Origin: a virus
Lineage: Duplodnaviria > Caudoviricetes
Strand: one strand, 5' to 3'
Length of the DNA stretch: 64,000 bases
Virus record (IMG/VR): IMGVR_UViG_3300026522_000022
Span: 32,001 to 96,000 of that record
Notes under the pieces: model-generated
Seen by the model: the letters and a program-made list of their open reading frames with translations, nothing else
What the model was told of the DNA's origin: nothing
Database searches by the model: none
Translations under genes and position numbers: made by a program
Part shown: piece by piece, positions 2-63,211 of the stretch
How the letters are laid out: each line of letters begins with the position of its first letter
Position numbering within the stretch: the first letter of the stretch is position 1

Positions 2-2290
2 TCTAACCTATCCAGCGCCATATCTGATGCAATGGATAACATGGAAGCATTAGGCGAAATCATGGATTCTGAGATTGAAAATCAATTAAATGGTATGGAT
101 GCTATTAATGATAAAATTGAACATCAACAGAATATGATAGAATTAATTTATGGTGACCAAGCATCTGCCGCACAGATTCAACTATTAAATCGTCAAGCAG
201 AAGTTGAAGAAAATAGAGTTGGTATTCTTGAAAAACAATTAGATATTCAAAAGCAAGCTACGGCGACTGCCAAAGAAATGTACGAAACTGACCTGGCCGC
301 ACATGGAGGAAAAGTAAATCAAGATTTATTAGAAAAATATCTTGATGCATTAGACCAAGAGCGAGATATTGATAATCAGATTCTTGAAACAAGAGAAAAA
401 ATTGCACAATCCTACAAAGATGCAAAAGAAGCCGCTAATGATTTAGCTGTAGATAACTGACTAACAAATTTCCAAGGACAGTTAAGTGATAATGGCCCCT
501 TCGTTCCTCTTGAATATATGGCTGACCAGTGAGAACGTATCCAAGAGAATGAAGAATTGTATCTTGATGATTTAAATAAAGCCTATGAAATTCAAAAACT
601 TTCAAACAAATATCAGGAGATGCTAAACGATGCAACTGATCCAAAGATTCAACAGCAAATCACCGACCAGATGCGGGAGCAGCTAGGATATTTGAATGAG
701 AAAACAAATCTTTCTAAGTATGACGTTGATTATGCTAATGCTCAACTTGAAATTTTACAAAAGACTATAGCTCTTGAGGATGCTAGAGCTGCAAAAAATC
801 AGATGAAGCTCCGCAGAGATAGCCAAGGTAACTATCAATATGTGTATGCGGCTGACCAAAATCAAACCGCAGAAGCAGAGAATGATTTGCTTGATGCTTC
901 GATGAACGCTTATAATATGAGCAAAGAGCAACAAGCAGATGTTCAAGATAGTTATATTAAAAAAGTTCAAGATATGGCAGACGCTCTCCGCAAAGCCGCC
1001 AACGATGCAACTTTAAATGAAGAGCAAATTGCAGCTATTACTCAAGATATCATTGATAAAGGCCACGAATATCTTGAAGCTATGGGCGAACAGCTAAATA
1101 CTTCTCAAAAGAATATGATTTCAAGTTTTATAGACGCCGCATTCCAGTTACAAGAGGAATATGCAAGTGGTGTCCGCAACATTGCAGAAGAACTTAAAGA
1201 AGATACTTCTCGTGGTCTGGATGATGTTGATGATAGGTTTGATACTTCTGTTAATAACTGAGTAGATGGCGAAACTGCAATTCGAGAACAGTCTAATAAA
1301 ACAAGAGAAAATATTATTAATAATATTAATAATTTTACCGATGCTGTTACAGAAGCTAATTTAGCTGTTGTTGACCCTCTTGGAGAGATACAGTCTGGTA
1401 TTGATGGTATTGATGACTCTATCGTGAAAATGAAAGATGATATGAGTGATTTATATAACACTTTAGACCAGCAGACAGGCGCTTTTGCGAATGCTGGAGC
1501 AGATGTAGAAGCATTGCAGGAAAAACTTACAGATGCAAACAATGCATTAAGTAAATACTCAACAGATTTGCAAGCAGCAAATGACAGAATTCAAGAATTA
1601 ACAACTGCAAATGAAGGATTAACAGCTCAATTAAATGGTGGAGGATCTGGCTCAGGAAGTGGTAGCACTGGAGGCACTGCCGCGAATGGAGGATTTGGTG
1701 GTAGTGGATATCAACAATCTGAATTAGCGGAAGGCGTTGCTGGAGCAATATGGACAATTGCAGGCGGCGGAGGATGAGGAGACAATCCAACTAGACATAA
1801 ATTAATGAGAGAAAAATTCGGTTCTTCTGCTGGTGATCAACTATTTGCTTCTGTCCAATCATTATTTAATAATGGATATGGTTATAATTATGGCGCTAAT
1901 AAAGGAAGTCAATATTATAGCAAATTCCAAGCAAGTAGTTTTGACACAGGTGGTTACACCGGTGAATGAGGTACTGATGGTCGCGTAGCCATGCTTCATC
2001 AAAAAGAACTTGTATTAAATGCTACTGATACTCAAAACATACTTGCGGCAGTCGATGCTGTTCGCGCGATAACAGAACAACTTAAAGGTTCTGCATTTAT
2101 TAATAATATTGGTTCTTCTATTGGAAAAGCCGCTCAAAACAATATTCAAGGTAATAGTATTGAACAAAGAGTTGAAATTACTGCGAATTTCCCGAATGTA
2201 AATTCTGCAGAAGAGATTGAACAAGCTTTATTGAATATTTCTGATAGGTCTTATCAATATGCATATAATAAAAATGATATACCTTGGTAG
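2..2290 (+). CDS. Tape-measure-like protein, C-terminal part (5' truncated by window); needs TGA=Trp
   Basis: ORFs 32, 557, 1424 and 1991 share one frame and are separated only by TGA. Long coiled-coil followed by FDTGGYTGE(W)GTDGRVAMLHQKELVLN, typical of tape-measure C-termini. Ends in TAG. Confidence 0.75.
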
Positions 2291-2357
2291 GGCAAATATA
2301 AATTAATCTTATATCAAAACTTTGAAATAATAAGAGTGAGATATAAGGACAAATATA

Positions 2358-2410: not shown

Positions 2411-5400
2411 ATGCGGATGGCTACTACCGATATTCAGAATAGTGTGTATAAGACTATTGATGTAATAGTCAAAAAACGCATTGAAGATTTACATCTAGAT
2501 AAAACGATTGAATGTATCGTTGAGAATTGTGTTGATTTAGAAACTGGAAAATATAGAGTTAAATATGGCGCAGGATTTTTTGACGCATATTCTATTAATG
2601 GAGAAGTATATTTTCCTAATACTGCAATTTATGTTTTAGTTCCAGAAAATGACTTTAATAATAAGAAAACTATTATTGGTAAAGTTAGTTCTGGATTACC
2701 AACTTCTTCAAATGAAGAAACTGACTTATTATATACAGATTATAATATTATCGGAAAAAATATTCTTGTTCCTAAAACTAGTGACGAATATTTTAAAATA
2801 AATTCTACGTCTACTCAAGAATATCAAAAAATATTGTATGATATAAACACTCCAGAAGAAAATTTATTAACAATTGATACGAACAGTTTAAACGTCTATT
2901 TAAAAGAAACTCAAGCTTTTCGTCTTTCCGGCAAATTCAAAACTAATGCTAAAACTAAAACTGGTCGAGAAAGCTTTGGTCTAACTTTTACTTTTACTCA
3001 AAAAACTGCAAATACTAATTATAAAACCATGCAAGCGAGATGAGAAGCAGAAGCAGAACAAGCTAAGGCTTTTGTTGAAGTTGAAAAAGACAAAATCGAA
3101 GAAAGAACTTTACAATATTACTATAATATAGTAAAAAATAATGTTTTTAACAATATGGCAGATAAGTCAGTAATTGCTGTTCAGAATGAATTGTCTGAGA
3201 TTGTTTCTGAGTTACAATTATTTAAAACAGGAATCTCAAAAGAGAATAAAGATGGATTAGAATTAACTGATTTATATATTCAACTATTAAGTGAATTAGC
3301 TAATTATACTGTTAATGCTAATAATAATGCTGTAACTAAAGAGGATATAGTGAGTCAGTTTAATAGCTGGTTTACTGGGATTTCTTATGGATATGAGAAA
3401 AAAGTTGTTTCATATTCATTAACCAGTAATATAATGACTGGTAATCCTTATCATTATTCTAACGCAAATGGAAGTTATCAATATTTCTTTGTTGATATTG
3501 ATCCTGAAAAATTTGTTTCTCTAGACCAAATTTTATTTTATAGTGATTTTATTCGTGATGATTCTAACGCAGAAGAAGACTTATGAGTTAAAGATATATC
3601 TTTAGAATGTATTAAATATGTTACTAATACAAATGAAGATTATCGTTTATCTTTAAGTTATAGTGATATTTATTTCGATGAAAGTGCTAGTGATGATACA
3701 AAAATTACCGTTAGCGCAAAATTAATTTATCAAGATAATAATGATGTTACTCAATATTCTAGATTTTTGTGGTTTAAGAAGAACAGTAACATAAAATCAA
3801 CAGATTTGAAATATAATAACTATGGCGGAGAAGGTTGAGAGCATATAACAGATAATTTAAATACTGTTTTATATGACCGTTCTCCAAACCTAGATTTATA
3901 CGTTAAAGATAATAAAATTTATCGTAATCAATATAAAGTTGTTGCGATGTATGATTCTTCTCTTCCAATAGAACAAGAATTTACTATTTACAACGAAAAA
4001 CATAATCATGATATTGAGTTAACAGCTCCTTCTGGTCTATATTTTAGAAAAGAAGTAAATGGTGTTAAAGAAATTATTTGTAAAATAGATGGAAGCGACA
4101 CTCCGCCTTCAACTGACTATGTATTCAAATGGTTTGCTAACGATATTGAAATAAAACCTCAAGCAGAAATAAAAGCATGAAGAGATAAAATTTCAATAGA
4201 AAAAGATAAAAATGTAAAGAATAGAGAACAAGCAAAATTAAATTTAGTTGGAACAATATTATGAGATAAAGAAAAAACTCCTAATATTATTCAGGTGCCT
4301 AATATTATAGAATATTCTGAAATAGAAGGGCAAGTGACGATTACTTGTCAAATATTTGTATTAGATGAAAATAACCAAGAAAATGAATTTGATGTAATTA
4401 GCGTTATATTAAAGAATGAAGAATCTTTACCTGTTTATTTAAAAGCTAATTATGTTGAGATAGAAAATGGTGACCAAGTTTTCCAATATAACGAAATGGG
4501 CATATCACCCGCCAGTGCTAGGTACGAGAACCCGCAAGTGCCTAAACAATTAAGTTGTAAATTATATGATCCCGCTGGCGGTTATATTGATAGATTAAAA
4601 TATTATGAAGTTTCTTGGGAAGTTCCTATAGAAAATACTTTAATTAGAGTTGACAATAGTCTGTTACAGACTGGCCCTTCTGGTTTAAAAAATAAAGTCA
4701 TTGGAGAAGTTCTAAACTTTTCTATTGCAGATGAATATGATTATAATGCTACAAATAATCAAATTATTTGTGAAATAAAAATGTTGCAAGATGGACAGCC
4801 AGTACCCTATCGCCAATCAACGAATTTTTTCTTTGGAAAAATTGGTGAAGATGGGACAAATGGAACAGATGTAGTTGCTAAAATTAGCCCCATTAATATT
4901 AATGATACTTTAGCTAAAGAAGTATTAACTTTAAATATTGATAAAACAGATGCAGATAATATAAAAACAGAATGAAATAATGGAGTTGCTACAGATGTTA
5001 ATGTTAATAACCAAGATGGGATTTTGCAATTACAATTATTTAGAAACAATAATTTAATCGACCCAAGTGAATATAAACACGTTTCATGGTCTGTTTTAAA
5101 CAATGGTTTAACTTCTAAATATTGAGGAACACATACAATTTTAGAAAACAACTCAGCTCCAAAAGTTTCATTAGTTTACAAAGAAGAAAAAAGTCCAAGA
5201 GCGTATACAAATTATGTCATTAAAGGACAAGCCGATCTCAAAGTAAATAGTACAGAAGATGATTTTAAAGAAACTAAATATCAAACTTATTTTGGTTTCT
5301 ATCCTATTTGTACTATTACTCAATATGCGGCAGACCTTAAATATAATGTTGGTATTGATAAAGCTAGAACGCTTCGTCGTATCATGTATAACTCAGATGG

Positions 5401-8400
5401 ACGTTTCCCACAATACAATAAAAACTTAGGTGTTGGATTAACTTTTACAAATAAGGACAATAATTCTTCTAAGTATTTTGGTGATGACACTTCCCGCACA
5501 ATTGTATGGGAAGCTCGTGGTGGTATCATCCAAGGAGAATATCAAGAGAATAATCCTGCTTTTTCTATTGGAAGAACTAAAACTTGAGTTCCTTCTATTG
5601 AAGGTCAAGCTGAGGATAAGATTTTAGAATTAGAAGAGACAAAAAAGAATTCATTAATTGATCTTATAGCAAAACAAAAAGAAAATTGTATTTCTACCGA
5701 CATTCCAAATACATTAAATGATATAAAAACACAAATTAATAATCAAAAAACAGCAGCAAATGAAGAATTAGAAACATTAAAATCTGAAGTTAATACTCTT
5801 TGAGAAAATTTTAGAACGGCACAACAGAATAAGAAAAAAACAGCTTGAGATCTCCTAGAATCTTATTCTAATGATATAGATATAAAATCATATATTTATA
5901 AAGATGATCAAAAATATTTTGATGATGAAGATGAATTATCTTTTAAAGAATATGTTGATGATTATGTAGGAGCAATGCTAACAAATGATTCAATTAGACG
6001 TAATCCATCTGTTAATTCTTCAATGGTTTCTCCTAAAATTCTAACTTCAGATTGATTAAGTTTTTCTATAAAAGGTGTTTCAGAAGAAGTTGAATTAGCT
6101 TTTCAAAATTTAATTATTACAATTACTATTGGTTATAAAGCTAATTTAATTGTATATGATAGCACTAGTGATAGTGAGTCATTATTAAGTCAAATTAATG
6201 AGTTAGAAAAAGAATTAGAAAAAATAAATAAAGAATTAGATAATTATAATTCTATTACAGATACAGATATAGCAGGAGAGCCTGATTCTGAAGGCAAAAA
6301 TGCTAGAGCAGAAAAAATAAAAGCTATTATTTTTGAGAACGATACTGTTACTGATGAAGATGGTATTTCACAAGTATTATTTAATCTTATTTCACAACAA
6401 AAAGAAATTTATAATCAACAAATATTAGATGCTTCTGAAAAACTTGATTTTCAAATTAATTATTTGAAAAATGAGTTAGATAAAAATGCCGATCCAACAT
6501 TTTGTAGTATTCTTCCTAATGAAATTTATAATGGAGAATTTACTAATCAATATGTAAAAGCTAGTATATATAAAGATGAAACATTAGAATATGAAATTAT
6601 TATTCCAATTCATATATATTTAAACCTTTATGGCCTTGGATTATTAAATAGTTGAGACGGCAATGGCATTGAAATTAATGATGAGGGTGAATATATATTA
6701 GCTCCTCAAATTGGAGCAGGTCAAAAAAATAGTGATAATACTTTTACTGGACTCTTAATGGGTACTAAAAAAGAATCTGAGCAAAATGGTGTTATTGGTC
6801 TATTTGGATATAATCAAGGTAGACAGTCTATTGCTCTAAATTCTGAAACTGGCAGTGCAGTTTTTGGTTTACCAGAACAGCAAGGTTCATTAACGGATGG
6901 CCGCATTGAACTAATTCCAGGAGGAACAAGCAGTATTTCTCAATGAAAAGTTGATGCTCGTAGTTTGTATAATATTTTACCTAGCCAAGAAACAGATATG
7001 TTAAGGATAACCGAGGATGCTCATATTACAGAAGAGCCAACAGACGAAAGACTGCTTGGTCCTAGATATGAGGATGCCCCGCAATTTGCGCATGGGTCTA
7101 TTCCGCATGACAAACAGGGTATTTTGTTCAGTGCTCTGCCACCATATGTTTCATTTAAAGGTAGACAATTAAATGCGGGTGACCATGAACAGAAAAAAGT
7201 TAATTTCTTGAATTTAAATACTACTGCTAGAGAAGGCGATAGTTTTGAATTACAAATTGACCCCAATGATTCTAAGTTTTTTACTCTATATGAACACTCA
7301 TATAGATTAAAGTATGGTGAAGTTTTTTGCGACCAATGGAAAAATCTTAAGAAAAGAAGCTTATATGATTTCTCCGATACACAAATTGATGACATTAAAT
7401 CACAGATACAAGCCAATGACAAAACTAAAGGTTACGAGATAGCAGAAAATGATTATATTATTTGTCAAATATATTATACAAATAATGGTAGGCAACTTCA
7501 TGTTTTATCTCTATTAAAATTTACACCAGGAAATAAAGAATGAATATTAATTAACCCAGCGTATCAAGACGCAAAGACTTTATCGAACGAGTATGTCGTT
7601 GGAGAACTTTATCAATATGAAGATTGAAATAGTTCTTCAAAATCATCTGTGTGAAAATTTATTACTTTCACTGACGATACTCAAATTATTAAAGTTGATA
7701 AATTTAGTTTAAATGACACTGATGGTGGAAATGGTTTTGATACTTTAACTGTTAAAGAAGAAGATATTCAAAATAAAGTGTGAAGGCGTCATCGAAAAGC
7801 CGGCATAGATTCAACTGGTAAATTTACCGCAGAAAGTCTTGGCGTTGGTAGTTTAGGAATGGGCTTAGGAGATATTAAAGCATTTAATAATGCCTCTTAT
7901 TTCGTAGGAACGAGTCTTGAATCTGATAATTCGCCAATTATTCAATTTTTTGCTGATAAACAAGGTATAGATATACAAGATGGAGATACTGGGCCTGTTT
8001 ATATTTCTTCTAGTAAAGATTTAGGAACAGACGAAGGAAAAAGACCTATTCGCATATATGCTGGAGTTAAATCTTCTAATTATAATGAATCTGTATTTGG
8101 TAATGATACTTATAAATCAGGAATTTTTGTTGGAAAAAATTCTATTAAAGATCCAATTAAGAACATTGCTAAAATAGAATTATGGCAAACTAATAGTTCA
8201 AATGACGATAATATAGTATTATCTGCTCTTGGCAATGACACTAACCATCAAAGTGTTTTTACTTTAAGTTCTAATCAAGCTGGTGGTTTAAATCATACTA
8301 ATGATTGAACAACTACTATTGGTGGGACTTTAACGAAAACTATAACCGGAAATTGGGACCAAACAGCTAAAAATAAATTTAAATTAAATACTGTATTGGG

Positions 8401-9502
8401 TATTCGTGTTACCGCTTTAAATAATCGACTTAATATAAGCAGTGGATATGACGATGGTACTGTTGATTCTGGATTACAAGTAACTTATCAAACAACAAAT
8501 TCTACTAAATTAAATAATTTTATTTTAAATGAGAATAGTAAATTTGATGTATGTCGCACTATGCAATTTTTTACAAGAGGCAGATCAGGCAATGAACCAG
8601 GAAATGATGGAACTGGTATGCTTATGTCCGCAGAGAATACCAATGGAGGTATTCTTTTACGCACCACTGCTGCTGAACAATTTGATGGAAATTACAGCGG
8701 AATAGCTACCGCACCTGGAGTTGCTTCTTTGTTATTACGCCCAAGCGCAGGTAATAGCGATGCTCCTGGTGAATTTTATTTACAAGGTGGGCAAGCAACA
8801 AATGATCCAAATTCAAGATATAAAAATAACCTTACAAGAGTTTTTAGTTCTCATGAACAAACAAAAAGCGGTGGAGAAATAGTCCATCATTGAGATAAAG
8901 CTATGGTTATTATTGAGCCAAGATTAGATGTTAAAAGTGGTTCTACACCTGGTCCAATTGTTGCTGGATCATTAGAGCTTCAAAAACAAGGCACATCAAC
9001 TGGTGATATAAGTGCTGCTGGAAATGTAGGTGTTGCTGGAAATATAAATGCTGCTGGTAATATTCAAGCTACCGGTAAAGATAAATGAATTTGAGGAACA
9101 GCGCTATATGCCGGAGAAAAATCAGGTGATTGATATAAAGGAAAAATTTATGGCGACGGTTCTGAAATAAGTAATACTTGCAATGGCGGAGGCGCAACCC
9201 CTGGTGGGGGAGGAACTATAACATTAGGTTCTTCGGATGGAGTATCTATAACCATCCCAGAAATTTCTGTTGTTCACGGGAGACCCAGGTTTAGCACTGA
9301 TACAATAACTATAAGAGCGAGTGAACCCGATAGTGGAAAGTGAGCTACTCGAGAATGAGTAGGAGAAAACGCAGTTAGAAAAACAGAAGTCTGATCTGAG
9401 ACTACTTCATTCACATATAACGAACCAACAATGCAAGCAATATTAAATGACATTGCGGTCAAACTAGATTCGTTAAGAAATGCTTTAAATAGAGGTATAT
9501 AA
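2411..9502 (+). CDS. Giant (~2360 aa) tail/baseplate structural protein; many in-frame TGA=Trp
   Basis: Eleven track ORFs (2411 to 8903) lie in the same frame, the gaps checked contain only TGA, and the frame ends at TAA 9500-9502. AAGGAG RBS upstream; position directly after tape measure. Confidence 0.7.
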
Positions 9503-10103: not shown

Positions 10104-13100
10104 ATGGCTGTAAGTGTTGTTAGTACATTATACCCTCCTTTAATTGAAACTTTTCAGCCCGCTTTTATTTATACCAATCCTGCCGTAGTTACTTTTTCTT
10201 TATCTCCTTTCAATGAAATTGAAAAAATTAAAAGGATTCATGTTTCTGTTGTAGACCAAAGAAACAATTCAAATGTTTTAAAAGGCTACATGGAACCTAC
10301 GCCCCAAGTTGTTAAAATTGACAATGAAGAAAAGGTTATCGGGTATTATTGTATCGTTAATGGAATTTTAATAGCAGATTTTCCTGAATTTAAAAGTGAG
10401 ACTATTGCAGAAGAGTTGGGACTATTTTATCATGACCCTATTAACGATATATATGCAATAAAACTAAACCCAGCTTGGCTGGATAGGGGTGAAGATAGTA
10501 AGAGTTCATACTGAAATAATAATCAATATTATCAAGTCCAAGTCCGTTTTGACAGTTCAGAACAATATGTAAATGGTATTAAACAAAATTTAAATTCTTA
10601 TAATAGTGCAGAGCTTGCGGGATACCTATTAGATAATAGGTCAAATTTTTCTGAGTGGTCTGATATTACTCTATTAAAGCCCATATTGAATCCTAAGATT
10701 ACTATAAATCAAATAGATAATATAGAGAATCCTGAAATTTCTAGAGGAAATTTTCGCATTACTGGGTCTATTGATTTTCAAGCTCCCACAAGTGAATTAA
10801 ACGGAGTAACTTATCCTGAGCAAGAACGACTTCAAGCTTATCGAATAGAAGTTATTTTTGCAGATAAAGAAATATATGATTCTGATTGAATATATGCAAA
10901 ACAGAATATTTTAAAATCAGAAAAAACAATGATTGACCATTTATTAAATACAGATAAGCTACCTGAAAATAGTGATTCAACTGTTGAATTAAAAATTTTT
11001 GGTCGCACTAATAATAGTTATGAATGACAAGAGTCTCGTTCACTTACTGTTGCGATGTTGCAGCCTGTTTTCTTAGATGATACAAGATGAAATTCTAAAG
11101 ACTCTGGTCTAGATAAAAATGATATTTTTGTGAATCAAGAAGATGGTGTTGCTCATATTCGTTTTAGTAGCTCTATCAACTCAACAAAGAAAACAGGAAC
11201 TATTACTCAGGGTATAATTTATATCAGACGGTCTTGTAGTAAAGATAATTTTAAAAACCAAGAATTAGTTTACAGATATATTTATAAACACAAAGGGCAA
11301 GATAATAATGTTACAATATCTTTTGATGATTTTACTATTTGCAGTTTATATCAATACAAATATTCTGTTCAGATGTGCATAATCCATGAGGAAGGTGAAT
11401 CTTGAAGTAATATAAAAGAGAGTAACAGAATTTATCCTGAATTTTATGATATGCTTTTTATGCGGCAGAACAAACAAATTGCTGTGCGATATAAGGGACA
11501 AGTTGCCTCCTGAAAACCAACAGTAAATAGACAAAAAATAGATACTTTAGGAGGCCGCTATCCTAAGTTTGTTGAAAATGCAAATATGAATTATAAAACA
11601 TATTCAATTTCTGGTTTAATTTCAGCAGAAGAAGATTTCAATCGAATGTTCTTAGATGAAACGACCGAAGAAAATAACACCGGAAAAGTAGTTGAGGATA
11701 GTTACTCTGAACCTGGCAACATTAGTAGGTATGAAGAAAGATTTGGTAATACTTATCAACTTCGTAATGACACGTATGCTGATGGAAATATAAAAAATCA
11801 TACAATAAATGTACCAGAAAAAGAAAAGGCTTTTGGAGCAAGCTTATATGCAAATACAGAATTTTCTGGTCAGTTGAATAATTGACATGATTCTTATCCA
11901 CACAATCATTGGTATTGAGAACGTGAATTTAGAGAAGAACTAGTAAAATGATTGAATGATGGAGAGCCTAAGTTATACCGTTCTATGCCAGAAGGCAACA
12001 TAGCAGTAATGTTAACTGACATAAATTTGACTCCTGAAAATCAGCTCGACCGCATGTTATATGACTTTTCCGCTACAATGTACGAAATTGCCGACGGATA
12101 TAACTTAGAAGATTTAAATGATTTAGGTATTATAGATATACCTACAACGTCTACTGTCTTTATTAATGGAGCTGATATTAGCAACGGTCTTTCTGAAGAA
12201 ACAGAAAGTGCAAACATTGGAGATAAGGTTTCAAATAAAATTGGTCAGATAAAATTAACAACAAAAGTTTTTTACGATAGAGATAATAAACGACAGACTG
12301 TTAATTTAATTAATGGTTCTTTAAATAATACTTCATATAATCCAAATAATCTTTGGGATAACATCACTATAATAGAACGATTAAAAGAGAAATATTTAAA
12401 CGATATTTCAAATGAAGTAGTTGATAATTCTGTTCAAATTACTAACGCGGATATACAATTTACGAGTCCTCCAAATTATTTTAATAGAAATGCTAATTCT
12501 AGGTTTGAAAAAGTAAATAATAAAACTAATTGATTGGGTTATGTATTTAATATTCAATTTAACAACAGTACTTCTCAACAAATCTTTGTTAATCAAAAAG
12601 GTTTTTACCATATCCCAGATACAACTTTAATTACAGGTATTAGTATGGATGTGGAGGGGCAAACTGCTCAAATGACATATGTATATGAGTACAGAACACG
12701 GGTGCCAGAAGAAACAAAATTTGTTCCAACCAGAATTTTAAAGCATATTATTGGGCAATATAGTGCCGATTATCCGCTACCATTAGGAACAGATATTATT
12801 TCGTTAATCAAAGAAAATCATAATAAAGTTAACTATGAGATTAGTTCTGTTACGACCGTTGTAAATTCAATAGAACTAGAAACCTGTTCTGGCTTACTAT
12901 TGGATTTAAGTCCTTATACTGTTTTAAAATACAATTATAAAAATGACAATGTTTCTTATCCATTATTAATAGGAGAAACAGGTGTTTTTAATGGCTTTGA
13001 AGATTGACCCATTGAATCTTTATTTATTTATGGTCGTCGTTTAACCAAAGCTAAAATTAAAAATAGTACAACATATCCTTACTTTATGGAAGATAGAGAA

Positions 13101-51275: not shown

Positions 51276-51301
51276 ATTACCTCACATTCCTCTATATATT
51301 T

Positions 51302-51330: not shown

Positions 51331-51331
51331 C

Positions 51332-51362: not shown

Positions 51363-51380
51363 AATTCTTGGTTATTTTTT

Positions 51381-52385: not shown

Positions 52386-52403
52386 CTTCGTTACCCCTTT
52401 TTA

Positions 52404-53336
52404 TTAAAACTTAAAATCACCAGTGGATGCGGCAGGCTTTGCGTTACTTGCGGGAGCCACAAAAGCACTTGTAGAAGCATTACGAGAAGCCTGATAATCC
52501 TCAGCACGCTTTTTCTCTGCGGCTACGCGCTCTTCACGCTCAACGAGCTTCTGCTTAAACTCATCAACTGTAATAGTGGATTCATCATCGTACTCATAAG
52601 GCTCAGCCGCACAACCTTCAATCTGCCAAGAACGAAGAGTACGAGTTGTAATATTAACCTGCGGACCACCAAACGCAGACTCAACCTCATTCTTTGTCTC
52701 AATTGTGGTGGAGATAATGTTACCCCAAACACGAGTAAGAAGAGGATTGGCGTTGCTAATATCACAATTCTCAAAATACTTAATACCATCAGGGTTCTTA
52801 ATTGTATAAGTTACAGGGAGAACATCGCCACGGAAGTTGAACGCATATCCGCGAACATTCATATAATCCTCGCCATCCTCAACCTCTTGCAGAGTTGCTT
52901 CTGCAATAAGCATATCGGTTTCAAAAGATGCCTCGAAATTAACATCATTCGCAAGATGGCAGAAACTACCACGAACACGCTTTGCCGCAACCATACCATC
53001 ACGACCAAGGAAGTCATTAATCTCTACGTCACCATCAATACGAACCTTAAGTGCAGAGGTACCGACTTCCTCAAAAGTATTCTGAGTTCCACTAAGAATT
53101 TGCTGAAGAACCTTATAAGTTGCATTCTCCTTACCGCTACGAGCATAACGCTCAGTAACATAAGTAAACGAAACAGGAACGACATTCATACCCTGATCAT
53201 CTGTCGCAACATTAATAATACCCTGAATGAAAGGAGTACCAGGATTCTTAGACTGCTCACCCGTTACTCGTGCCTGTAGACTGTGTGAAAAAATGTAACC
53301 CTCAACATGTGTATTATTTGTCCAGTTTGTGCGCAT
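52404..53336 (-). CDS. Probable single-stranded DNA-binding protein
   Basis: Two OB-like halves, flexible tail ending GDFKF, next to the Sak4-like gene. Confidence 0.55.
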   Translation of the reverse strand: MRTNWTNNTHVEGYIFSHSLQARVTGEQSKNPGTPFIQGIINVATDDQGMNVVPVSFTYVTERYARSGKENATYKVLQQILSGTQNTFEEVGTSALKVRIDGDVEINDFLGRDGMVAAKRVRGSFCHLANDVNFEASFETDMLIAEATLQEVEDGEDYMNVRGYAFNFRGDVLPVTYTIKNPDGIKYFENCDISNANPLLTRVWGNIISTTIETKNEVESAFGGPQVNITTRTLRSWQIEGCAAEPYEYDDESTITVDEFKQKLVEREERVAAEKKRAEDYQASRNASTSAFVAPASNAKPAASTGDFKF

Positions 53337-54105: not shown

Positions 54106-54744
54106 TTATTTATCAGGCCAAATTCCCGTAATGAATTCATTGTAAGGAAGTGTATGAACCCATTCTACAAAATCTTTAGACCATTGCAGCAGCCTGTGGT
54201 TTTTTCTTTGACGATACATTGCTGCTAATGTTTCATAATTTAAGCAAACGGTACGTTTTTGAATAAATGACTCTGGTAACATAGCTTTTAACATTTTTAA
54301 ATAATAATTTTTACGTTGAGGGTCATTTTTCGCTCGGTCAGCCGCAGTTTTTAAAACATTAATATAATCTTTAAAAGCAACTTCAATATTTCAATCTGCT
54401 CCATCAAATTCAGGTCATTCAAAATCTTCTTCGTCAAAATCTTCATCTAAAATTTTATGCATAGTAGATTCTGAATTTGCAGATGTGCCTATTTTATAAG
54501 TATCCCATTCTGCTCACCAGTATCTCGGCGCTCAAATATCTGCTCATACCTGAATCATACGTAAATATTTTCTATGTTCTGTTCCAGCTTGCCAAAGATT
54601 CTTTGCTAACTTATAATCATTTGGCCCAAGATAAAAATGACCATTATCCCAATAGGAATCATATTTGTTATATGACTTTAAAGGGTTCCGCATACCTCGA
54701 ATAGCTGGTTCAAAACCACTAACATTTAGAGTTTTAAATTTCAT
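54106..54744 (-). CDS. ThyX-like flavin-dependent thymidylate synthase fold protein (212 aa); several TGA
   Basis: AIRGMRNP, EHRKYLRMIQV(W)ADI(W)APRYW(W)AEWDTYK, STMHKI, LPESFIQKR, QRKNHRL. Confidence 0.65.
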
Positions 54745-55676
54745 TAGCCTATTCCCTTGTTCCCATTATAACCTAAAGAATTAGAGTTATAAAGTGAAAT
54801 AAAATATTTCTCTTTCTTATCTAAGTCTTGCGGCGGACACTCTTCTAATAATTCAAAACTGAAATTTTCAATTCCATATTCCTGCATAGCCGAGTATAAT
54901 TTATTTCCTGTGGGAGTATCAATACCAATCGCGGCCTTAACGTGATCGTTTCATCTAAGCCGCACATCTTTAGCTTGACCAATATAACATTCTTCTGTTT
55001 GAAGATTTGTTATTTTATAGATGCCGCATACATTTTGTTTTCCTAATATTTTAGGAAATTTTATTTTAGTTATTGGCTGATAGTATGCAGTTCATATTAC
55101 CATAGAAAGTGCGCGAGGTTTTGAAATTCTCATTTTAGTTTCTTCAAGGATTGCAATATCTCTTTGTTCTCCTTTTGGAAGAGACAAAGTAAAAAAATCT
55201 TTATTTGCTTTAATCTCTTTTTCTTTGCGTGCGGCTTCAATAACAGCAATTTTAGTATTTTGTAAAGACTGTAATTCTAAACCTGTTTCTTCAATTTCAA
55301 CTAACATTTTACGTCTTTGATTTTCAAGTTCAGTTAAGTCTTTATTAAATTCAGCCTCTAATACTTTTCGACGTTCTTCCGCAGCTTCTTCGGCTAACTG
55401 TTTTGTATTTTCAATTACTTTTATTTTTTCTTCATACTGACTTTGCAGTTCCGACTGACGGACCTCGGCCGCATGAATTTGTTCTTCTCTTCATTTTATA
55501 TCAGATACTAAATTTTTAATTCTTAATTCTAACTTTTCTTCTTGATTGTGTAATTCTTCGCAAGTTTTTCTTATTTCTTCGTTTCTATCTTCTATTGGTT
55601 TAGAAGCAAATTTGCGACCTACGAAAAAGGCAATAATAATTAATATTATTGCTACAACTCAAAAAATTCCATCCAT
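54744..55676 (-). CDS. Membrane-anchored coiled-coil protein with C-terminal GIY-YIG nuclease domain (310 aa); TGA=Trp
   Basis: N-terminal TM (IF(W)VVAIILIIAFFVG), long coiled coil, CGIYKITN...CYIGQA...R(W)NDH...GYN. Confidence 0.75.
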
Positions 55677-56145: not shown

Positions 56146-56328
56146 TTAACTAAAAATTACTTGTCTGCCACAATTTGGACAGTATATATTTCCTTTTACC
56201 CCATTTCATATATCTGAACTACAACCTTGATGATTACATTTAGAACAATAGCCTAATTCACCACCAATTCAATATTCTTTATTGGGGTCTTGCACAATAT
56301 CATCGTTCATATTTTTAATTTCGTCCAT
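56146..56328 (-). CDS. Zinc-ribbon protein (60 aa, 2 TGA)
   Basis: CSKC...CPNCG; coupled to the ligase stop. Confidence 0.55.
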
Positions 56329-57353
56329 TAGGCAAATACCTCCTCTAACTGACAATCTTTAATATCTTTATCATAACGCATAGTCTCAAATACTGGATGA
56401 CGAATAGTCTTATCCTTTTTGTTCAAAGACATACAAGATACTTGAACTACTTGATTAAGATATTTTTCAGGATTTTCAGCCATATCTGCACGAATATCAT
56501 CTGATAATCCTGAAGCTACACGACCTACTTCAATAATCTTACCATTTTTATATGCACCCAGCCGCATAGCATTTTTCCAACCATAATAATAGTGTTTTGT
56601 TACTGGTTCACCATCAATCCAATATTGCCAAGTTTCAAGCTCTTTGCCCGTATATTCTTTAATTGGATCAAGCAATTCCATGCATATAAGATCAACGCTA
56701 TCAACATGTTCTTTCATCTTAAAGCAAGTCATAGGTCGCTTATCTGGCTCGTATATACTATCTTTGCGTTTAAAGACCATACCTTCGCCGCCCATTATAA
56801 AAATATTATTAAGTATACTTTCAAAATCTGAATCGTAAATAATACTTAAATGAACTTGCGGCGAGTATTCAAAATTCTTTAGATAATTCCATCTATCAAT
56901 AAATCCAATAGAAGTCAAATCTATACCATCGTACCGTATACAATCAAAAACATAATAATGAATTAACCCACCAAATTCATCGGTTTGAGTTTGACGCTTA
57001 ATCGCATTGGCGGCTGTGCATCCCATAATCTTTGTAACATCATTTGACTTACCACCGGGCACAAAAATCTCACCAATTAATACAGTTTCATTTGGAAGCT
57101 GCTTTGCCCACTCAATAATATGCGGCACATTCGCAGATTTTTCTGTTAATTCTCCAGTTTTCTTGGATTTAGTTCTGCCAAAGAGATAGATACGTTTATC
57201 ATCTATCTTTTCTAGCATATACCAAGCTCCATCAATCTTTTCTTGAGCAACCCAATCTCCGCTTGTAAATGCGGCATCAACAATTGAATCAGCTGGTTTA
57301 TTGTGATACCGCATTGCAGGGACTTGATGTGACCCAGAATACAGGCTAGACAT
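56328..57353 (-). CDS. ATP-dependent DNA ligase
   Basis: QEKIDG, LIGEI, YVFDCI, GEGMVFK, FKMK, IRHPVF. Confidence 0.9.
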   Translation of the reverse strand: MSSLYSGSHQVPAMRYHNKPADSIVDAAFTSGDWVAQEKIDGAWYMLEKIDDKRIYLFGRTKSKKTGELTEKSANVPHIIEWAKQLPNETVLIGEIFVPGGKSNDVTKIMGCTAANAIKRQTQTDEFGGLIHYYVFDCIRYDGIDLTSIGFIDRWNYLKNFEYSPQVHLSIIYDSDFESILNNIFIMGGEGMVFKRKDSIYEPDKRPMTCFKMKEHVDSVDLICMELLDPIKEYTGKELETWQYWIDGEPVTKHYYYGWKNAMRLGAYKNGKIIEVGRVASGLSDDIRADMAENPEKYLNQVVQVSCMSLNKKDKTIRHPVFETMRYDKDIKDCQLEEVFA

Positions 57354-59508
57354 ATTTCTTACCCTTTCCCGCACGGCCTTGTACTTTAATACCTTTTATA
57401 GTCTTATTATACTTTTTAAATTCAATTGTGTCAACGGCAGGATGACAAACCAAAGCTTCAATAACATAGTCACCATCTTCAAGCGAAATTCCCTTTACGC
57501 CGCGTGCAGTTTTTCCAACCGGATTAACTTTATCAAGTTCAAATTGAATAATATAACCATTATTAGAAACAATAACTGCATAATCTCCGTTGCACTCATA
57601 CCAAGAAATATATTCATCTCCATCGACAAGACCAGCAGCCTTCATTCCCTTTTTGTTTTGGGTTCCGCCAAGATAAATTGTCTTATCTGATTTTTTAACC
57701 AAACCGTTCTTTGTAAACCCAACAATATAAGGATGTTTTTCATCAATATTCATTGAGAAAATATTCAAAATTTTCTCGTTTGCTTCAAGATTGAGGATTG
57801 AACCGACAGCCGTTCCCTTATCTTTCATTCCACATTCGGCAATATTATCTACACCGATGCGGAATACCTTTCCAAGAGAAGAGAATAGAACAATCATATC
57901 TGTAGTTTGAGTTTTAAAACTGTTAACAATATTATCATTCTTAACTGAGCGGTAAGCCTTCACAGGAATACGTTGGAGATAACCGAGTTTATTGTAAATT
58001 ACAATTACATCTTGCGGGATGATCTGCGTAATCGGCTTCTTTGCAGTCGGCTTGATAATCTTCTTCTGTGTTACATCTGTGCGGCGGTCATCGCCAAATT
58101 CCGCACACAACTTTTCTAATCTTTCAATTAGAACTTCTTTTTGTCTTTTAGCAAATGTGGCAATATCTTTGCAGTATGCCGCATATTCTTCTTTCTTTTC
58201 TTTCTCTTGGACTAGCTTCTCTTCTTCGAGTTTTGAAAGACGTCCGAGTTTCATATCAAGAATTGCTTTAACTTGACGCTCGCTAAGTTCTGGATACGCA
58301 GCGCTTAGGTTCTTATGAGTTGATTCACCGCGAATAACTCGAATAATACTATCAATTCTTTGAACTGCAAAAATTAAACCTTCAAGAATATGAAGTCTGT
58401 CAATTGTTTTTTGATATTCAAATTCAAATTCTCGTTTTATGCAATAAAGATTGTGTCCCATATAAGCATTTGCAACTTGATTTAAATTAAGTAAATGGGG
58501 AGTTTTACCAATTAGGGCAACTTGGTTAGCATTATATGTTTGACGAAGATCTGTCTCTGCAAAAATCTGATTAAGTGTAATATCAATATTTGCATCAGCC
58601 GCAAGCTCTACGACAATACGAACTTGCTTTGAACTTTCATCGCGCACATCTTCAACACCAGTAATTTTTTCTTTAATAATTCCTTCGCAAAGCTGAGGAA
58701 TGATGCCCTTAGACTTTCCTTGGTCGCTATATTCAATCTTTGTGCTATATGGAATTTCATAGAATACAAGAAGTTTCTTACCATTACGAGTTTCTTCTCT
58801 ATATTTAGCTTCAAGAATAACCTTCCCTCTACCGGTACGATAAATAGAAGCAACCTCGTCTTGGTTTACAATAGTTCCGCCAGTAGGAAAATCAGGAAAA
58901 AGATTTGTATAATCAATCTCTTCTCCTTTGATATAAGGAATTAAGACCATATTAACAATATCTTTTAGATTATGCGGGAGCCAGTTACATGCAAGTGCCA
59001 CACCAATGCCGCTAGTTTGGTTACACAAAAGATTTGGAAACAGTGCCGGAAGAAGAACTGGTTCTTCAATATCTTCTGAATAGTTTGGCCGCATATCAAC
59101 AACATTTTTATTGATTGCATTTAGAAAACCGGTTTCAGCCAGTTCATTAAGACGGCATTCTGTATAACGCATAGCAGCTGCGCCGTCTCCACCAATGTTA
59201 CCCTTATTACCATGCCAGTCAATAATAGGATAACGCATATTCCATTCTTGCGCAAGTCGTGTCATCGCATCATATATGGATGTATCTCCATGTGGATGAT
59301 ACTTACCCATTACATCACCGACAATACGTGCGCATTTTACATATGATTTATCGTGAAAAAACTTTTCTTGATTCATTGACCATAAGATGCGGCGAGCAAC
59401 TGGTTTTAAACCATCTGCCGCATCCGGAATTGCTCTGTCGGTGTTTACAGCATAGGCGTAATCAATAAAGTTTTGCCCAAGCTCTGCACAAACATCATGA
59501 TTAGACAT
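57346..59508 (-). CDS. gyrA: Type IIA topoisomerase (gyrase-like) subunit A
   Basis: DGLKPVARR, YHPHGD, AAMRYTE, C-terminal pinwheel repeats. Confidence 0.9.
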   Translation of the reverse strand: MSNHDVCAELGQNFIDYAYAVNTDRAIPDAADGLKPVARRILWSMNQEKFFHDKSYVKCARIVGDVMGKYHPHGDTSIYDAMTRLAQEWNMRYPIIDWHGNKGNIGGDGAAAMRYTECRLNELAETGFLNAINKNVVDMRPNYSEDIEEPVLLPALFPNLLCNQTSGIGVALACNWLPHNLKDIVNMVLIPYIKGEEIDYTNLFPDFPTGGTIVNQDEVASIYRTGRGKVILEAKYREETRNGKKLLVFYEIPYSTKIEYSDQGKSKGIIPQLCEGIIKEKITGVEDVRDESSKQVRIVVELAADANIDITLNQIFAETDLRQTYNANQVALIGKTPHLLNLNQVANAYMGHNLYCIKREFEFEYQKTIDRLHILEGLIFAVQRIDSIIRVIRGESTHKNLSAAYPELSERQVKAILDMKLGRLSKLEEEKLVQEKEKKEEYAAYCKDIATFAKRQKEVLIERLEKLCAEFGDDRRTDVTQKKIIKPTAKKPITQIIPQDVIVIYNKLGYLQRIPVKAYRSVKNDNIVNSFKTQTTDMIVLFSSLGKVFRIGVDNIAECGMKDKGTAVGSILNLEANEKILNIFSMNIDEKHPYIVGFTKNGLVKKSDKTIYLGGTQNKKGMKAAGLVDGDEYISWYECNGDYAVIVSNNGYIIQFELDKVNPVGKTARGVKGISLEDGDYVIEALVCHPAVDTIEFKKYNKTIKGIKVQGRAGKGKKYV

Positions 59509-62427
59509 AAATTTCCGCCCTTTCGCTGTTATCTCTAATGTAAATCTTGCGCTTTTCTGCATCTTTGCCCATCAATTGTTCAAAGAGCATATCAGCTTTG
59601 CCAAAATCTTCAATCGTAATTTGTTTAATAATTCTGGTTTCAGGATTTACTAGCGCCTCTTCGATTTCGTCAGAAGACATTTCTCCTACGTATGATTCCT
59701 TTATTTCTAAAGGTACTGACTATTTCTTCTATCGTATGATAGCTCACCGTTTCCACCTATGTACCAATAATAGGTGTACTCCCCAACAACGGGGATAGTC
59801 GATACAGGTTTTATTCTACGACGATATGTTTTCAATTATATCCATTCCAGATATTTTTAAAAGAACCTTTTGTAATACCCGTATATTTATAATCTTCATA
59901 TACATCTTTTTGTTTTTCGCCATTCTTTTTTCTTAAACGAATGGCTAATACATCTTCTTCAGTAAGTTTTGAACGACCGTTTTGTGAACCTTTTTGTCCA
60001 GTGTTATGTTTATGAAATTCTATATTTTCTGGAGTGTAAACATCCATCATAACACCTTTTCAAGTTTCTCCTTTTCAAATTTTAGAAAAACCTGAATGAC
60101 CAATTTTATCTTTATAAAGTTGCTCAACTTCTTTACAACGTTCTTTATTTTTATATCGTGTTCTTATATCTATAACATCTTGTTCAGTCATTTTATGCCG
60201 TGGATGATTTTCTCCATTGTTTCCCTCTCCGCCGCATCTAATATTATAACCATTATCATGAACTAAAGAATGATAATAATTAATTCAATATTGTTCTTTT
60301 TTATCTAAGTCATTCAAAGAACATTCTTCAATCACAGAAAATATAAAATTTTCTATTCCGTATTTCTTAAATGCTTTGTACAGAGGAGAATCGGCGTGTC
60401 GTTCTTGCTCATATGGAGATTTATGTTGCGTCCATCTTCTTTCAATAAAATTAGATTGACCAATATAAATTTTACCATTTATTTTATTTTCTATTTTATA
60501 AATACCAATCATATTATCTCCTTTCAATAATGATTAGAGATAATATCGTAGTAGAATAACTTCCCACGAGATTATCTTCTACTATATATAATTTTTAACA
60601 TTTCACGGTTATCCTGAAATACCCAAAATTATTTTATAGCGGTCAGACTCCCTCGTTAGCCGCAAATGCGACCCCGCTGGTAAACGGAAAAATGAGTAAG
60701 GGCCAGACTATCTCTTACCCTTTTAAACGACTAACTTGATATTTGCTAATATCATTCTCTTGCTTAAATTCGGCAAGAGCATCGTCATCTTTAATATAGA
60801 TAATCTCTTTATTATTTTTCAATCTGAAAAGTGGTGGAACGCCCGCATATACAAAACCATCTTGAATCAGTTCTGGGGCAAAATTCCATATAAACGTATA
60901 AAAAAGATTTTTAATATGAGCTCCGTCTACGTCAGCATCGCTCATAATAATAATTTTTCCATAACGCACATCAGCCTTATTGTAGACAAGACGCTTGCCA
61001 TCTGCACTAACTTTCAGTCCAAAAGCATTAATCATATCTACAATCTCTGCATTTTTCATAATCTTATCCAGAGTTGCCTTTTGAGTGTTAAGAATCTTAC
61101 CACGAACAGGAAGAACCGCTTGATATTCGTTATTACGAACTTGCTTTAGATTACCACCTGCAGAATCGCCCTCTGTGATATAAATCTCACATTTACTTCT
61201 GTCCTGACTATAACAATCAGCAAGTTTAGAAGGAAGATTTAAAGACTTCTTCTTTGGCTCAGTCTTTACTTTTGCCTTAACAGCAGCCCTTGCTTTCTTC
61301 GCAGCTTCTGCCGCACGTCTAGCTAGAAGAGCTTTCTCAATAATATTTCTTCCATCTGTTGGATTGTTGTCTAGCCAAACTTCAAGTTGTTGTCCAAGAG
61401 TAGAAGAAATAAATGAAGTATCAATCTTAGTTACGGTTGTTTTAACCTGGGCATTATAACCAACATTTTCAGCAGTGATATTGCAGACAAGAATCAAACC
61501 TTCTTGTAGAGAACTACCATCAAGATTCTTTTCTTTTTCTGTAAGAATACCCTGCTCTTTAGCCCACTTATTCATAATACGGGTGATGGTAGATTTAATA
61601 CTTGTGATGTGCGGACCTTGCGTAGTATTGCCGCAATTAACATAAGTAATAATATTGCTGCTGTTCCGAGAAGTGTAAGTTAAAGCCAAATCAAGTTTTT
61701 GTTTTTTCTCTTTCTCTTGGATAATAAGTGGTGTATTAATAATTTCAATATCAGTTCCAATATTCTTTTTTAGAAAATCGGAAATACCATTTTCATGTCG
61801 AATTTGTTCATTGTTAAATACAATTGTCAAATTAGGACAAAGGCATGTAATATCATCACAAAATTCTTTAAGCTTTTTAATATTAACATGCGGGTCATCA
61901 AAGAATTCTGCACTTGGCTTAAAGGTTACTGTTGTACCTGACCAGTTAAAACCGTCTCCAACTTCGCGCTTATCAAACACACCTTCTTTAAACCAAATAT
62001 GCTCATACTCACCAGTCTCTTTGTGAGAAATAACTTCCAACCAATTAGAAAGAAAGTTGGTAAGTTTGCTACCTTGGCCGTGTAGCCCCAACGCGCTACC
62101 TTCATACACTCCATCTGAAGAGAATTTACCAGATGTATTCATAACATCAAACGAAGCTTGGAGGATAGTTTCATTATCTTCACGAAGAACATTGATAGGA
62201 AATCCTTGTCCTTCATCTTCAATTTGAACAACACCATTATCAGCAATATTAATAATAATTTTATTTCCGTGTCCAATATTGTGCTCGTCAATAGCATTAG
62301 CTAGAATTTCTAGTGCCAACTGAGTAGGGTCTTGAGTATCTCCAATATACATACCAGGGCGTAAGCGAACATGCTCTCTAGGGGCCAAAGACTCAATACT
62401 ATCATCAGTATATAAAGTTTTATCCAT
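59501..62427 (-). CDS. gyrB: Type IIA topoisomerase (gyrase-like) subunit B; exons 62427-60717 and 59688-59501 (~632 aa)
   Basis: VRLRPGMYIG, EGDSAGG, PVRGKILN, DADVDG; splice restores RLKG|LGEM. Confidence 0.9.
59689..60716 (-). mobile_element. Group I intron in gyrB (1028 nt) with GIY-YIG endonuclease
   Basis: P1 GGGT/GCCC; terminal G; T|TA restores Leu of KGLGEM. Confidence 0.9.
59811..60512 (-). CDS. Intron-encoded GIY-YIG homing endonuclease (233 aa, 4 TGA)
   Basis: MIGIYKIENKINGKIYIGQS...RRWTQH...EQY(W)I...GYN; repeated KLTEEDV..IR modules. Confidence 0.88.
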
Positions 62428-63211
62428 CAAAGACCCCTTTCTTTTTTAAATAGTTAAAATTAATTAAAGCTAAGTCAGTATAAGGAATTCTTATTAAATT
62501 AATATTATTATCAACGCAATATTGATTTTTTATTTTATCTCTATATTGTACCGCTTTCAAAAAATCCTCCGTATAATATCCTCCGTTTGATTTAAAATGT
62601 TGTATACCATCATATTCTATACAACAATTATATTTAGGCAAATAAAAATCAAATCTTAATATACCAGACGTTTTTTTATTTTTACATCTTCCGTTATCTG
62701 TTCATTCTTCAATAAAATCTATATTATTCTGCTGTAAAATATTTCGTAATAATAATTGTCCTTTAGATTTTTCTGAACATTTTGGACAACAAATTCTTTT
62801 TCTGGTGCCATCTCCATATTTATCTCTATTTCATTCTCCAATTTGTAAATTAAATATATTCCCACAATCGCATCTAATTTGTCAGAGATTACCTCCATTA
62901 GAGCGACTTTCTATTTTTTTAACAGCAGTTAAAGAACCTTTTCGTTCGCCTGTTATATCTAAAGCATTTGCTTTATTTTTTGCAATAACTTTTTCTTTTT
63001 GCAAACATCCGCAACTTTTAGTGTTACCTGTTTTTAATTTGTGCATAGAAGTATAAATAATAGTATGATTATTACAAGAACATTGACATTTTCATAATCA
63101 CCGATTATCGCTATCCTTTTTACCAGTAAATTCAAGAACTGTTAATCTATTAAAAACTTGTCCTGTAATATCTTCTATATTTCTTCCTGATGGGGCTTTA
63201 ATATATTTCAT
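62420..63211 (-). CDS. Free-standing Vsr/DUF559-like (PD-(D/E)XK) homing-type endonuclease (263 aa); TGA=Trp
   Basis: Two DITG..F/K..LT....(W)..CxC modules, SKG, LRFDFYLP...IEYDGIQH...D..K..YC...I.LIRIPY. Confidence 0.75.

Follow-up and report, generated by a model that had tools for sequence, protein, structure and literature searches.

Phages that read TGA as tryptophan in hosts using the standard code are established, and the parts of two studies that deal with them, one on crAss-like phages (Yutin et al., PMC7886860) and one on several clades from gut and rumen (Borges et al., bioRxiv 10.1101/2021.08.26.457843), describe recoding concentrated in late genes, suppressor tRNAs, and rapid switching of codes within clades. 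Here we analyze a stretch of 64,000 nucleotides (hereafter the window, G+C 33%) from the IMG/VR virus record IMGVR_UViG_3300026522_000022, a linear record of 130,610 bp that is about 90% complete and of which the window covers bases 32,001-96,000. A preliminary description, made from the letters of the window alone, had proposed a genome-wide reassignment of TGA to tryptophan. Our analysis finds the reassignment to be correct and to be an already described kind of phage recoding, not a new one, and it also locates a split tRNA with anticodon UCA in the same record.

The Agate phages, which come from cattle and pig, measure about 127 kb and are TGA-recoded, are described in the relevant parts of the preprint as keeping their replication genes in the standard code and as carrying, inside an early gene, an intron endonuclease rich in TGA (Borges et al., bioRxiv 10.1101/2021.08.26.457843). 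At 130.6 kb and about 90% completeness, our record fits this clade feature by feature: TGA is reassigned to tryptophan, recoding affects structural and lysis genes and leaves the replication machinery in the standard code, TGA-rich intron or homing endonucleases lie among early genes, standard, TAG, and TGA codes stand side by side in one clade, and the GC skew pattern fits two replichores. This likeness is judged from the published description, as far as those parts give it, rather than from a terminase phylogeny. The difference from the Agate account lies in the decoding tRNA: the preprint reports suppressor tRNAs in only 35% of the genomes with code 4, and where it treats them, no intron-split or two-armed tRNA(UCA) is described.

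The phAss-1 group (“Phassvirus”), siphovirus-like gut phages of about 133-136 kb (PMC10607447), shares with our record a very long tape measure protein (3149-3209 amino acids [aa] there and 2924 here), a DnaE-type polymerase, and recoded late genes, with a Clostridia host predicted there. Its cultured relative, Enterococcus phage EF1, is matched by the DnaE of our record at about 42% identity. Unlike in our record, it is TAG and not TGA that is reassigned in the phAss-1 group; four or five of the relatives that we found through DnaE are also TAG-recoded, and the group looks like the same broad lineage as this record. Resemblances extend to crAss-like phages with TGA-to-Trp or TAG-to-Gln reassignment (Yutin et al., PMC7886860), in which reassignment likewise falls mostly in late genes, suppressor tRNAs occur, codes switch over short phylogenetic distances, and introns are many, with TGA-bearing intron ORFs (open reading frames). 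Those phages, however, belong to an unrelated order with Bacteroidota hosts and have a different virion and replication module. The present record adds one more well-documented example to published work in which gut and rumen phages of Firmicutes make late genes and selfish endonucleases depend on a reassigned stop codon.

Reading of TGA

All genes discussed here are our own greedy ORF calls. Two TGA-dense calls (record 125822-126265 and 20505-20729) aligned to stop-filled DNA in relatives; they were considered spurious and removed from all statistics. Within the window, the share of sequence covered by stop-to-stop ORFs of 100 aa or more is 0.70 under the standard bacterial code (code 11), 0.77 if TAG is sense, and 0.95 if TGA is sense. 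When the ORFs must reach 200 aa, the values are 0.35 under code 11, 0.47 if TAA is sense, and 0.80 if TGA is sense. The longest open frame has 829 codons under code 11 and 2366 once TGA is sense. Across the whole record, the cover by ORFs of at least 150 aa rises from 0.51 to 0.79, a gain of 28 points, whereas two relatives used as controls (G001 and G002), whose corresponding genes are open under code 11, gain only 0.035-0.04. A comparison of stop codes on coding density, which the preliminary description had proposed, thus comes out best for TGA as sense. Its statement that only TGA interrupts the frames and that reconstructed genes end in TAA or TAG is also borne out, the called genes ending in TAA (128) or TAG (41) and in no other codon. 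In-frame TGA is present in 43 of the 62 called window genes (147 TGA versus 139 TGG), and the whole record holds 262 TGA and 335 TGG, so that TGA makes up 44% of the tryptophan codons. As the in-frame TGAs are evenly spread along genes (21-32 per gene-length decile), there is no hint of hidden TGA terminators. Under code 11 the record fragments and most tail and lysis genes are lost; it should be annotated with code 4.

Every gene was translated with an X in place of each TGA, and a search of these proteins against G001 and G002 gave 116 alignable TGA positions. Tryptophan stands in at least one relative at 52 of these, an aromatic residue (W, F, or Y) at 66, and glycine at four. Counted by cells of the alignments, W accounts for 92 of 219 and cysteine for none. 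Since the background of tryptophan in the aligned sequence is 1.2%, this is a strong enrichment (binomial p about 1e-67), and it is what the preliminary description expected of homologue residues at TGA; glycine (4/116), in contrast, is at or below its background of 5.8%. The window subset behaves alike (Trp 33/69, Gly 2/69), and so do 25 further related loci, in which 300 cells opposite TGA comprise 119 W, 45 Y, 22 F, 4 G (1.3%), and 1 C. In a TGA-recoded relative, G016, TGA faces a TGA of our record nine times and a TGG twice. Among single genes, all three TGA sites of RuvC face tryptophan in both G001 and G002; the 2363-aa tail protein has tryptophan in both relatives at three of 10 alignable sites and in one relative at a fourth; and in the 263-aa protein at 62420..63211 relatives show tryptophan at three of five. 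Residue 218 of the Dam methylase, encoded by TGA, is tryptophan in 110 of 119 diverse homologues, the other three TGA columns of this gene being variable. The density gain over the standard-code relatives, a 30- to 40-fold enrichment of tryptophan without glycine or cysteine, and a matching tRNA(UCA), described below, together establish TGA as a sense codon for tryptophan in this phage, as read from its alignments.

The seven motifs quoted in the preliminary description as placing TGA where tryptophan is expected do all sit at TGA codons, though their value as evidence is uneven, and several of them are, as aligned, tryptophan only within this phage lineage and not in cellular homologues. The RuvC motif TTG(W)A has tryptophan in both relatives (a PDB search with RuvC gave no match), and the TGA of the ricin motif QQ(W) falls in the QxW repeat motif of PDB alignments, the W of the next repeat, QRW, being spelt with TGG. 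For guanylate kinase, N(W)YYGT has tryptophan in both relatives but asparagine in cellular enzymes; for NrdD, LD(W)TM has tryptophan in a relative but F or E in solved structures; and EQY(W)I of a GIY-YIG endonuclease faces Y in one relative and W in the other. The methyltransferase motif Y(W)EPF is mostly isoleucine, with tryptophan in only five of 119 homologues, and it is residue 218 of the same gene that speaks for tryptophan. A “ThyX-like” label given to 54106-54744 found no support in Pfam or PDB.

What did not hold is the uniform spread implied by “genome-wide”. The tryptophan meaning stands, but genes differ strongly in how far they use TGA (chi-square 172, df 56, p 1e-13). We defined a replisome set of nine genes with 4412 codons, namely, two DnaE pieces, a primase-like protein, DnaB, AAA_24, a 310-aa protein, ligase, GyrA, and GyrB. 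This set contains 1 TGA and 50 TGG, against 90 TGA and 38 TGG in the late block at 2411-31182 (Fisher p 6e-19). Moreover, the sole TGA of the set precedes two ATG codons as well as the region aligning with solved GyrA structures, and is therefore probably outside gyrA. Homing endonucleases inserted among the TGA-free genes carry 15 TGA and 8 TGG. Use of TGA is thus partitioned by module: the replisome genes can in effect be read with the standard code, and the tail, lysis, and homing-endonuclease genes are TGA-rich.

The decoding tRNA

The window itself contains no tRNA, and the record contains no release-factor domain, in agreement with the preliminary description, which had noted neither a suppressor tRNA nor a release factor gene in the window and had suggested looking for them, and for a tryptophanyl-tRNA synthetase (TrpRS), in the rest of the genome. 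That search of the record succeeded for the tRNA and returned no release factor or TrpRS gene. ARAGORN calls ten tRNAs in the record, none with anticodon UCA; at permissive settings, it makes 207 calls, which we discarded as noise. A tRNA(UCA) gene is nevertheless present at record 115,149-115,436, 19 kb beyond the window, where it is split by a group-I-like intron of 192 nt (282-473 of locus L004). In our splice model, U is the last base of the 5' exon and G the last base of the intron, with the junction between anticodon positions 34 and 35. Excising the 192 nt yields a cloverleaf of 96 nt that has the anticodon UCA, G73 as discriminator, and an encoded CCA end. The predicted spliced tRNA has a tRNA-Trp-like body with 7/5 acceptor/T-stem and a 4-bp D-stem, together with a long variable arm whose loop reads CUCCAAA; ARAGORN labels it “SeC(tca)” from the anticodon and the long variable arm. 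Its 3' half matches annotated phage tRNA-Trp genes.

Comparison between contigs supports the splice model. A copy in L056, 89% identical, leaves both exon junctions unchanged, and a double change from A-U to G-C in its acceptor stem pairs across the intron. An exact pattern for the 3' half of the tRNA found one contig only, and a looser, collection-wide pattern found 22 contigs (51-176 kb) that carry the same 3' half, eight of them uninterrupted and 14 with an intron. The eight uninterrupted alleles show exactly the predicted junction, ...GGTCTT joined to CAAAACCG.... The suppressor sought in the rest of the record is found, although only after removal of the intron. ARAGORN calls all eight intron-less copies and misses all 14 intron-bearing ones; that 14 of 22 copies escape is due to the intron, which offers a specific explanation for suppressor tRNAs being overlooked. 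Group I introns are known from bacterial tRNA anticodon loops, for example, in the cyanobacterial tRNA-Leu(UAA). The intron described here resembles that case in its site between positions 34 and 35, with a 5' exon ending in U and an intron ending in G, and differs from it in that the interrupted gene is a phage stop suppressor with an extra arm resembling a tryptophan anticodon loop, and in its sub-threshold Rfam score.

We gathered relatives with the TGA-free DnaE as query and judged the code of each by the stops in the homologue of the 1097-aa tail protein. In the 15 relatives found in this way, the tail gene has no in-frame stop in 11, TAG in four, and TGA in none, and the collection-wide tRNA(UCA) pattern hits none of the 15; the tRNA gene is likewise absent from the standard-code relatives G001 and G002, which end 12-13% of their ORFs in TGA. 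Conversely, six of the seven tRNA(UCA)-bearing contigs with a homologue of the 1097-aa protein hold 4-8 in-frame TGA, and tRNA-bearing G016 has four TGA within residues 1-358 of a different tail protein, the homologue of the 2363-aa protein. Leaving out the index genome, that is, the record analyzed here, TGA recoding is seen in 7/8 relatives with tRNA(UCA) and 0/15 without it (Fisher p about 3e-5 by our own calculation). The split tRNA is thus linked with TGA recoding among relatives. Homologues of the 1135-aa tail protein are open under code 11 in G001 and G002 and contain five TAG in G003. As the relatives are standard, TAG-coded, or TGA-coded, three codes coexist in one lineage. The TAG-coded members are G003, G013, G014, and G015 (L011 and L029-L031) and locus L032, whose tail genes have in-frame TAG instead of TGA; the TAG codons of L031 often stand opposite glutamine.

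The tRNA-rich region around the split gene (record 106-116 kb) holds several other structured RNAs. A tRNA with anticodon UAU at record 109341-109432 (L003 13441-13532) has a long variable arm with the 7-nt loop CAGAUUA, in which GAU sits at the anticodon position. Its counterpart in the standard-code relative G002 (2578-2667, minus strand) has an identical loop and a stem changed on both sides (GCGC/GCGC versus GCUC/GAGC). The CAGAUUA arm parallels the CUCCAAA arm of tRNA(UCA). An 86-nt tRNA with anticodon UGU, for the threonine codon ACA, lies at record 109104-109189 and has a class-II-like extra arm and U73, which is unusual for a tRNA-Thr. A full-length ROOL RNA (RF03087, 347.6 bits) is found at record 112384-112985 (L003 16484-17085). 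A tRNA-like Rfam element missed by ARAGORN (40.8 bits; record 107098-107168, L003 11198-11268) was considered as a suppressor and rejected, as its anticodon is CUU; it follows directly after tRNA-Glu(CUC) and has two anticodon-stem mismatches and a non-canonical T-loop.

A shift site in dnaE

One TGA departs from the rule. At the 5' end of dnaE (region 43294-43339, minus strand), the heptamer CTT-TGA-C occupies 43300-43294; the PHP motif begins in frame 0 (MELHSHTMYSNIRLL), reaches this heptamer, and resumes (DSINFPEKL...) in the +1 frame only. Since the PHP domain goes on only in +1, the TGA of this heptamer is not a tryptophan codon, which makes it an exception to the reading of all TGA as tryptophan. 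The identical heptamer is found in L009 and L027, and as the flanking codons there show synonymous differences, an assembly error is not the explanation; most relatives are in frame at this place. L027 belongs to G004, a relative whose tail genes are open under code 11. The heptamer is the same as that of bacterial prfB, where it serves a programmed +1 frameshift (CUU-UGA-C). A Shine-Dalgarno-like stimulator 3 nt upstream of CUU is absent: the three contigs all read AATATTCG(T/C/A)TT(A/G) there and lack any G-rich element. In L007, L008, and L010, a +1 shift is needed at TCT-TAG-G, a few codons earlier. Synthesis of the polymerase might depend on how UGA is being read.

Could the lineage owe its change of code to an undescribed, two-armed design of tRNA, with the dnaE CTT-TGA-C site as a possible sensor of how UGA is read? 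In such a design, the anticodon arm would hold a variant anticodon, and the anticodon loop canonical for that amino acid would sit in the long variable arm. The proposed cases are UCA with the CUCCAAA loop, in genes that may or may not contain a group I intron, and UAU with the conserved GAU-bearing loop, in a tRNA reading AUA; for synthetases that recognize the anticodon, the extra arm would be a decoy for tRNA identity. We offer this tentatively and regard it as rather doubtful.

Probable explanation and alternatives

The closest cultured relatives by DnaE are Enterococcus phages of about 140 kb and SPbeta-like Bacillus phages, at about 40-42% identity (a megablast of dnaE against GenBank phages gave no match), from which we take the window to derive from a large tailed phage of Bacillota. 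Taking the evidence together, this is very probably a gut-type, siphovirus-like Bacillota phage of 130.6 kb in which TGA serves alongside TGG as a codon for tryptophan (code 4) and which supplies the decoding itself and partitions the use of the codon between its genes. The phage itself would supply the decoding through tRNA(UCA), with its G73 and tRNA-Trp-like body, which the host TrpRS may charge; as the intron interrupts the anticodon, this tRNA would have to be spliced before working. The host most likely reads TGA as stop. The replisome genes, which would be needed before the suppressor accumulates, would avoid TGA, and the tail, lysis, and homing-endonuclease genes, free to use it, would be completed only once the suppressor is present, which may give the codon a role in timing. 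A standard-code host is favored by the TGA-free replisome, the suppressor of the phage's own, the code-11 and TAG relatives, and published host predictions.

Several observations weigh against this interpretation. Relatives have tryptophan at 68% of TGG columns and only about 40-45% of TGA columns; the lesser conservation of TGA columns would fit a spread of TGA at less constrained tryptophan sites. The tryptophan at TGA is deduced from alignments. No RF-1, PCRF, or class-Ib synthetase domain was found in the record, which is about 90% complete. The Rfam group I match at tRNA(UCA) scores 41.9 bits (local E 2e-9), below the gathering score of 50. The relative G029 (L067) carries an intron-less two-armed tRNA(UCA), yet no in-frame TGA in its 1097-aa homologue, and may be a standard-code phage already holding the suppressor; furthermore, the counts behind the association come from related phages and are not independent events. 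A search for the host through the lysin gave two weak bacterial matches (38-39% identity), one of them in a Mediterraneibacter metagenome-assembled genome.

Could the host itself use code 4, as Mycoplasmatales or Spiroplasma-like Bacilli do, with the phage mirroring its host and no switch during infection? The missing release factor and TrpRS genes and the weakness of the two bacterial lysin matches would allow it, and the record carries a ROOL RNA, a family that also occurs in Mollicutes-related lineages. In Mycoplasma and Spiroplasma, a tRNA-Trp with anticodon UCA reads TGA as tryptophan, but there it is the cell's own code and applies to all genes, whereas here the reading is phage-borne and avoided in early genes. 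TGA, at 44% of tryptophan codons (262 versus 335), is not dominant over TGG, the partition is sharp, with a replisome effectively free of TGA, and the phage brings a tRNA(UCA) of its own. Equally at odds with a code-4 host are the 15 relatives without in-frame TGA in the probe gene (four of them TAG), the 12-13% of TGA-ended ORFs in G001 and G002, and a dnaE CTT-TGA-C site common to a standard-code relative. Standard-code Firmicutes hosts are predicted for the Agate clade in the relevant part of the preprint (Borges et al., 10.1101/2021.08.26.457843). We consider a code-4 host improbable. Less probable still is that the host tRNA-Trp(CCA) reads TGA after the phage has disabled RF2, the split tRNA(UCA) being a non-functional relic. 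The sub-threshold intron, with splicing only predicted, would be compatible with a relic, as would the 35% of TGA-recoded genomes in which suppressor tRNAs are reported (Borges et al., 10.1101/2021.08.26.457843, in the part that gives this figure). But the intron hides 14 of 22 copies from ARAGORN, which could alone account for low detection rates, and a relic would not be expected to keep its exons perfectly conserved at both junctions between contigs 11% apart overall, to undergo a compensatory acceptor-stem change across the intron, to exist as intron-less alleles in eight contigs, and to co-occur with TGA recoding.

Other meanings of TGA have next to no probability. Coding density alone cannot separate code 4 from code 25, in which TGA is glycine (with a host of the Absconditabacteria or Gracilibacteria type), and the ARAGORN label “SeC(tca)” could be taken for selenocysteine; cysteine is a further candidate. 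The residue tables exclude both code 25 and selenocysteine, with glycine at 4/116 positions, at or below its background, and in 4/300 cells, and cysteine stands in 0/219 and 1/300 cells. Bacterial tRNA-Sec has an 8/5 acceptor/T-stem architecture, whereas the tRNA found here has 7/5 stems and a 4-bp D-stem, and 262 in-frame TGA are far too many for selenoproteins. That the interrupted frames are pseudogenes or assembly errors is just as remote. The record is a metagenome assembly, and its nrdG carries an odd 9-nt insert with a TAA; but TGA is the sole interrupter, frames do not shift at those sites, there are 147 such codons in 43 genes, TGA aligns with tryptophan, and independent contigs repeat the pattern. 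Pseudogenization was rejected on the residue tables.

Genes of the window

On the plus strand, up to about 31.2 kb, the window holds the end of the tape measure gene, very large tail proteins, smaller late genes, and an endolysin-like ricin-lectin protein. The tape measure is represented by the C-terminal 762 of 2924 aa (2..2290; record 25516-34290), is assigned by PHROG tape-measure families (E 1e-16), and has five in-frame TGA in the window part and 19 TGA with 11 TGG in the whole gene. It is followed by the 2363-aa tail or baseplate protein (2411..9502), which with 25 TGA and 9 TGG is the most heavily recoded gene, and by tail proteins of 1135 aa (10104..13511; 13 TGA) and 1097 aa (13514..16807; 11 TGA), the latter being the probe for the code of relatives. 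The remaining late block (16817..29609) consists of small tail or unknown proteins with mostly 1-7 TGA each, and includes a glycosyltransferase-TPR protein (24311-25420). The protein with an endolysin-like domain and a ricin-type lectin (30199..31182; Pfam ELLD and RicinB_lectin_2) has five TGA.

From 31.2 kb onward, the genes of nucleotide metabolism and replication lie on the minus strand, beginning with RuvC, dUTPase, NrdG, NrdD, and guanylate kinase and going on with the DnaE-type polymerase, Dam methylase, RecJ, primase-like protein, DnaB, AAA_24 ATPase, ligase, GyrA, and GyrB. The RuvC-like resolvase (31234..31725; Pfam RuvC) has three TGA. The anaerobic ribonucleotide reductase region (33330..37777) has one TGA only, in NrdD-N, and comprises NrdG, an NrdD in three pieces (33972-34601, 34882-35346, and 36845-37777), a group-I-like intron between two of these pieces (34618-34919, a sub-threshold match), and an HNH endonuclease (35756-36283). 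Guanylate kinase (37850..38467; Pfam) has two TGA. The DnaE-type polymerase (Pfam) is in two pieces (40879-43200 and 38454-39818) with 0 TGA and 17 TGG, parted by a GIY-YIG endonuclease with one TGA (39923-40768). A Dam-type (D12) adenine methyltransferase with four TGA follows at 44099..44851 (Pfam), and then a RecJ-like exonuclease, also in two pieces (47035-47709 and 44862-45980), with a GIY-YIG endonuclease of 6 TGA and 2 TGG between them (46137-46973). The Toprim/primase-like protein, DnaB helicase, AAA_24 ATPase, and 310-aa protein (48173..53336) together have 0 TGA and 14 TGG; an ORF of 161 aa inside this span (50802-51287) has one TGA. A further GIY-YIG endonuclease (54744..55676) has 4 TGA and 0 TGG. 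The ATP-dependent ligase, GyrA, and GyrB (56328..62430) are TGA-free but for the one TGA upstream of the likely GyrA start, and a GIY-YIG endonuclease between gyrA and gyrB (59811-60527) has four. The 263-aa protein, to which no function is assigned, has 5 TGA and 0 TGG and is the last recoded gene of the range covered by the preliminary description.

DnaE and RecJ (both within 38454-47709) and NrdD are thus each found in two or three pieces, parted by GIY-YIG or HNH genes. No intron was detected around most of the endonuclease genes that part DnaE, RecJ, NrdD, and gyrA/gyrB, and the pieces of DnaE, RecJ, and NrdD may either be spliced together or work as split proteins. In nrdG (33756-33792, minus strand), the 9-nt insert with TAA falls inside the radical-SAM CxxxCxxC motif (GC-S-stop-Q-SLHCKGC), which is uninterrupted in 14/14 related sequences; a translational hop, a defect, and an artefact of assembly are all conceivable. 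Outside the window, a group I intron above the Rfam threshold (93.4 bits) lies in the head-side late region at record 11190-11420 (L001).

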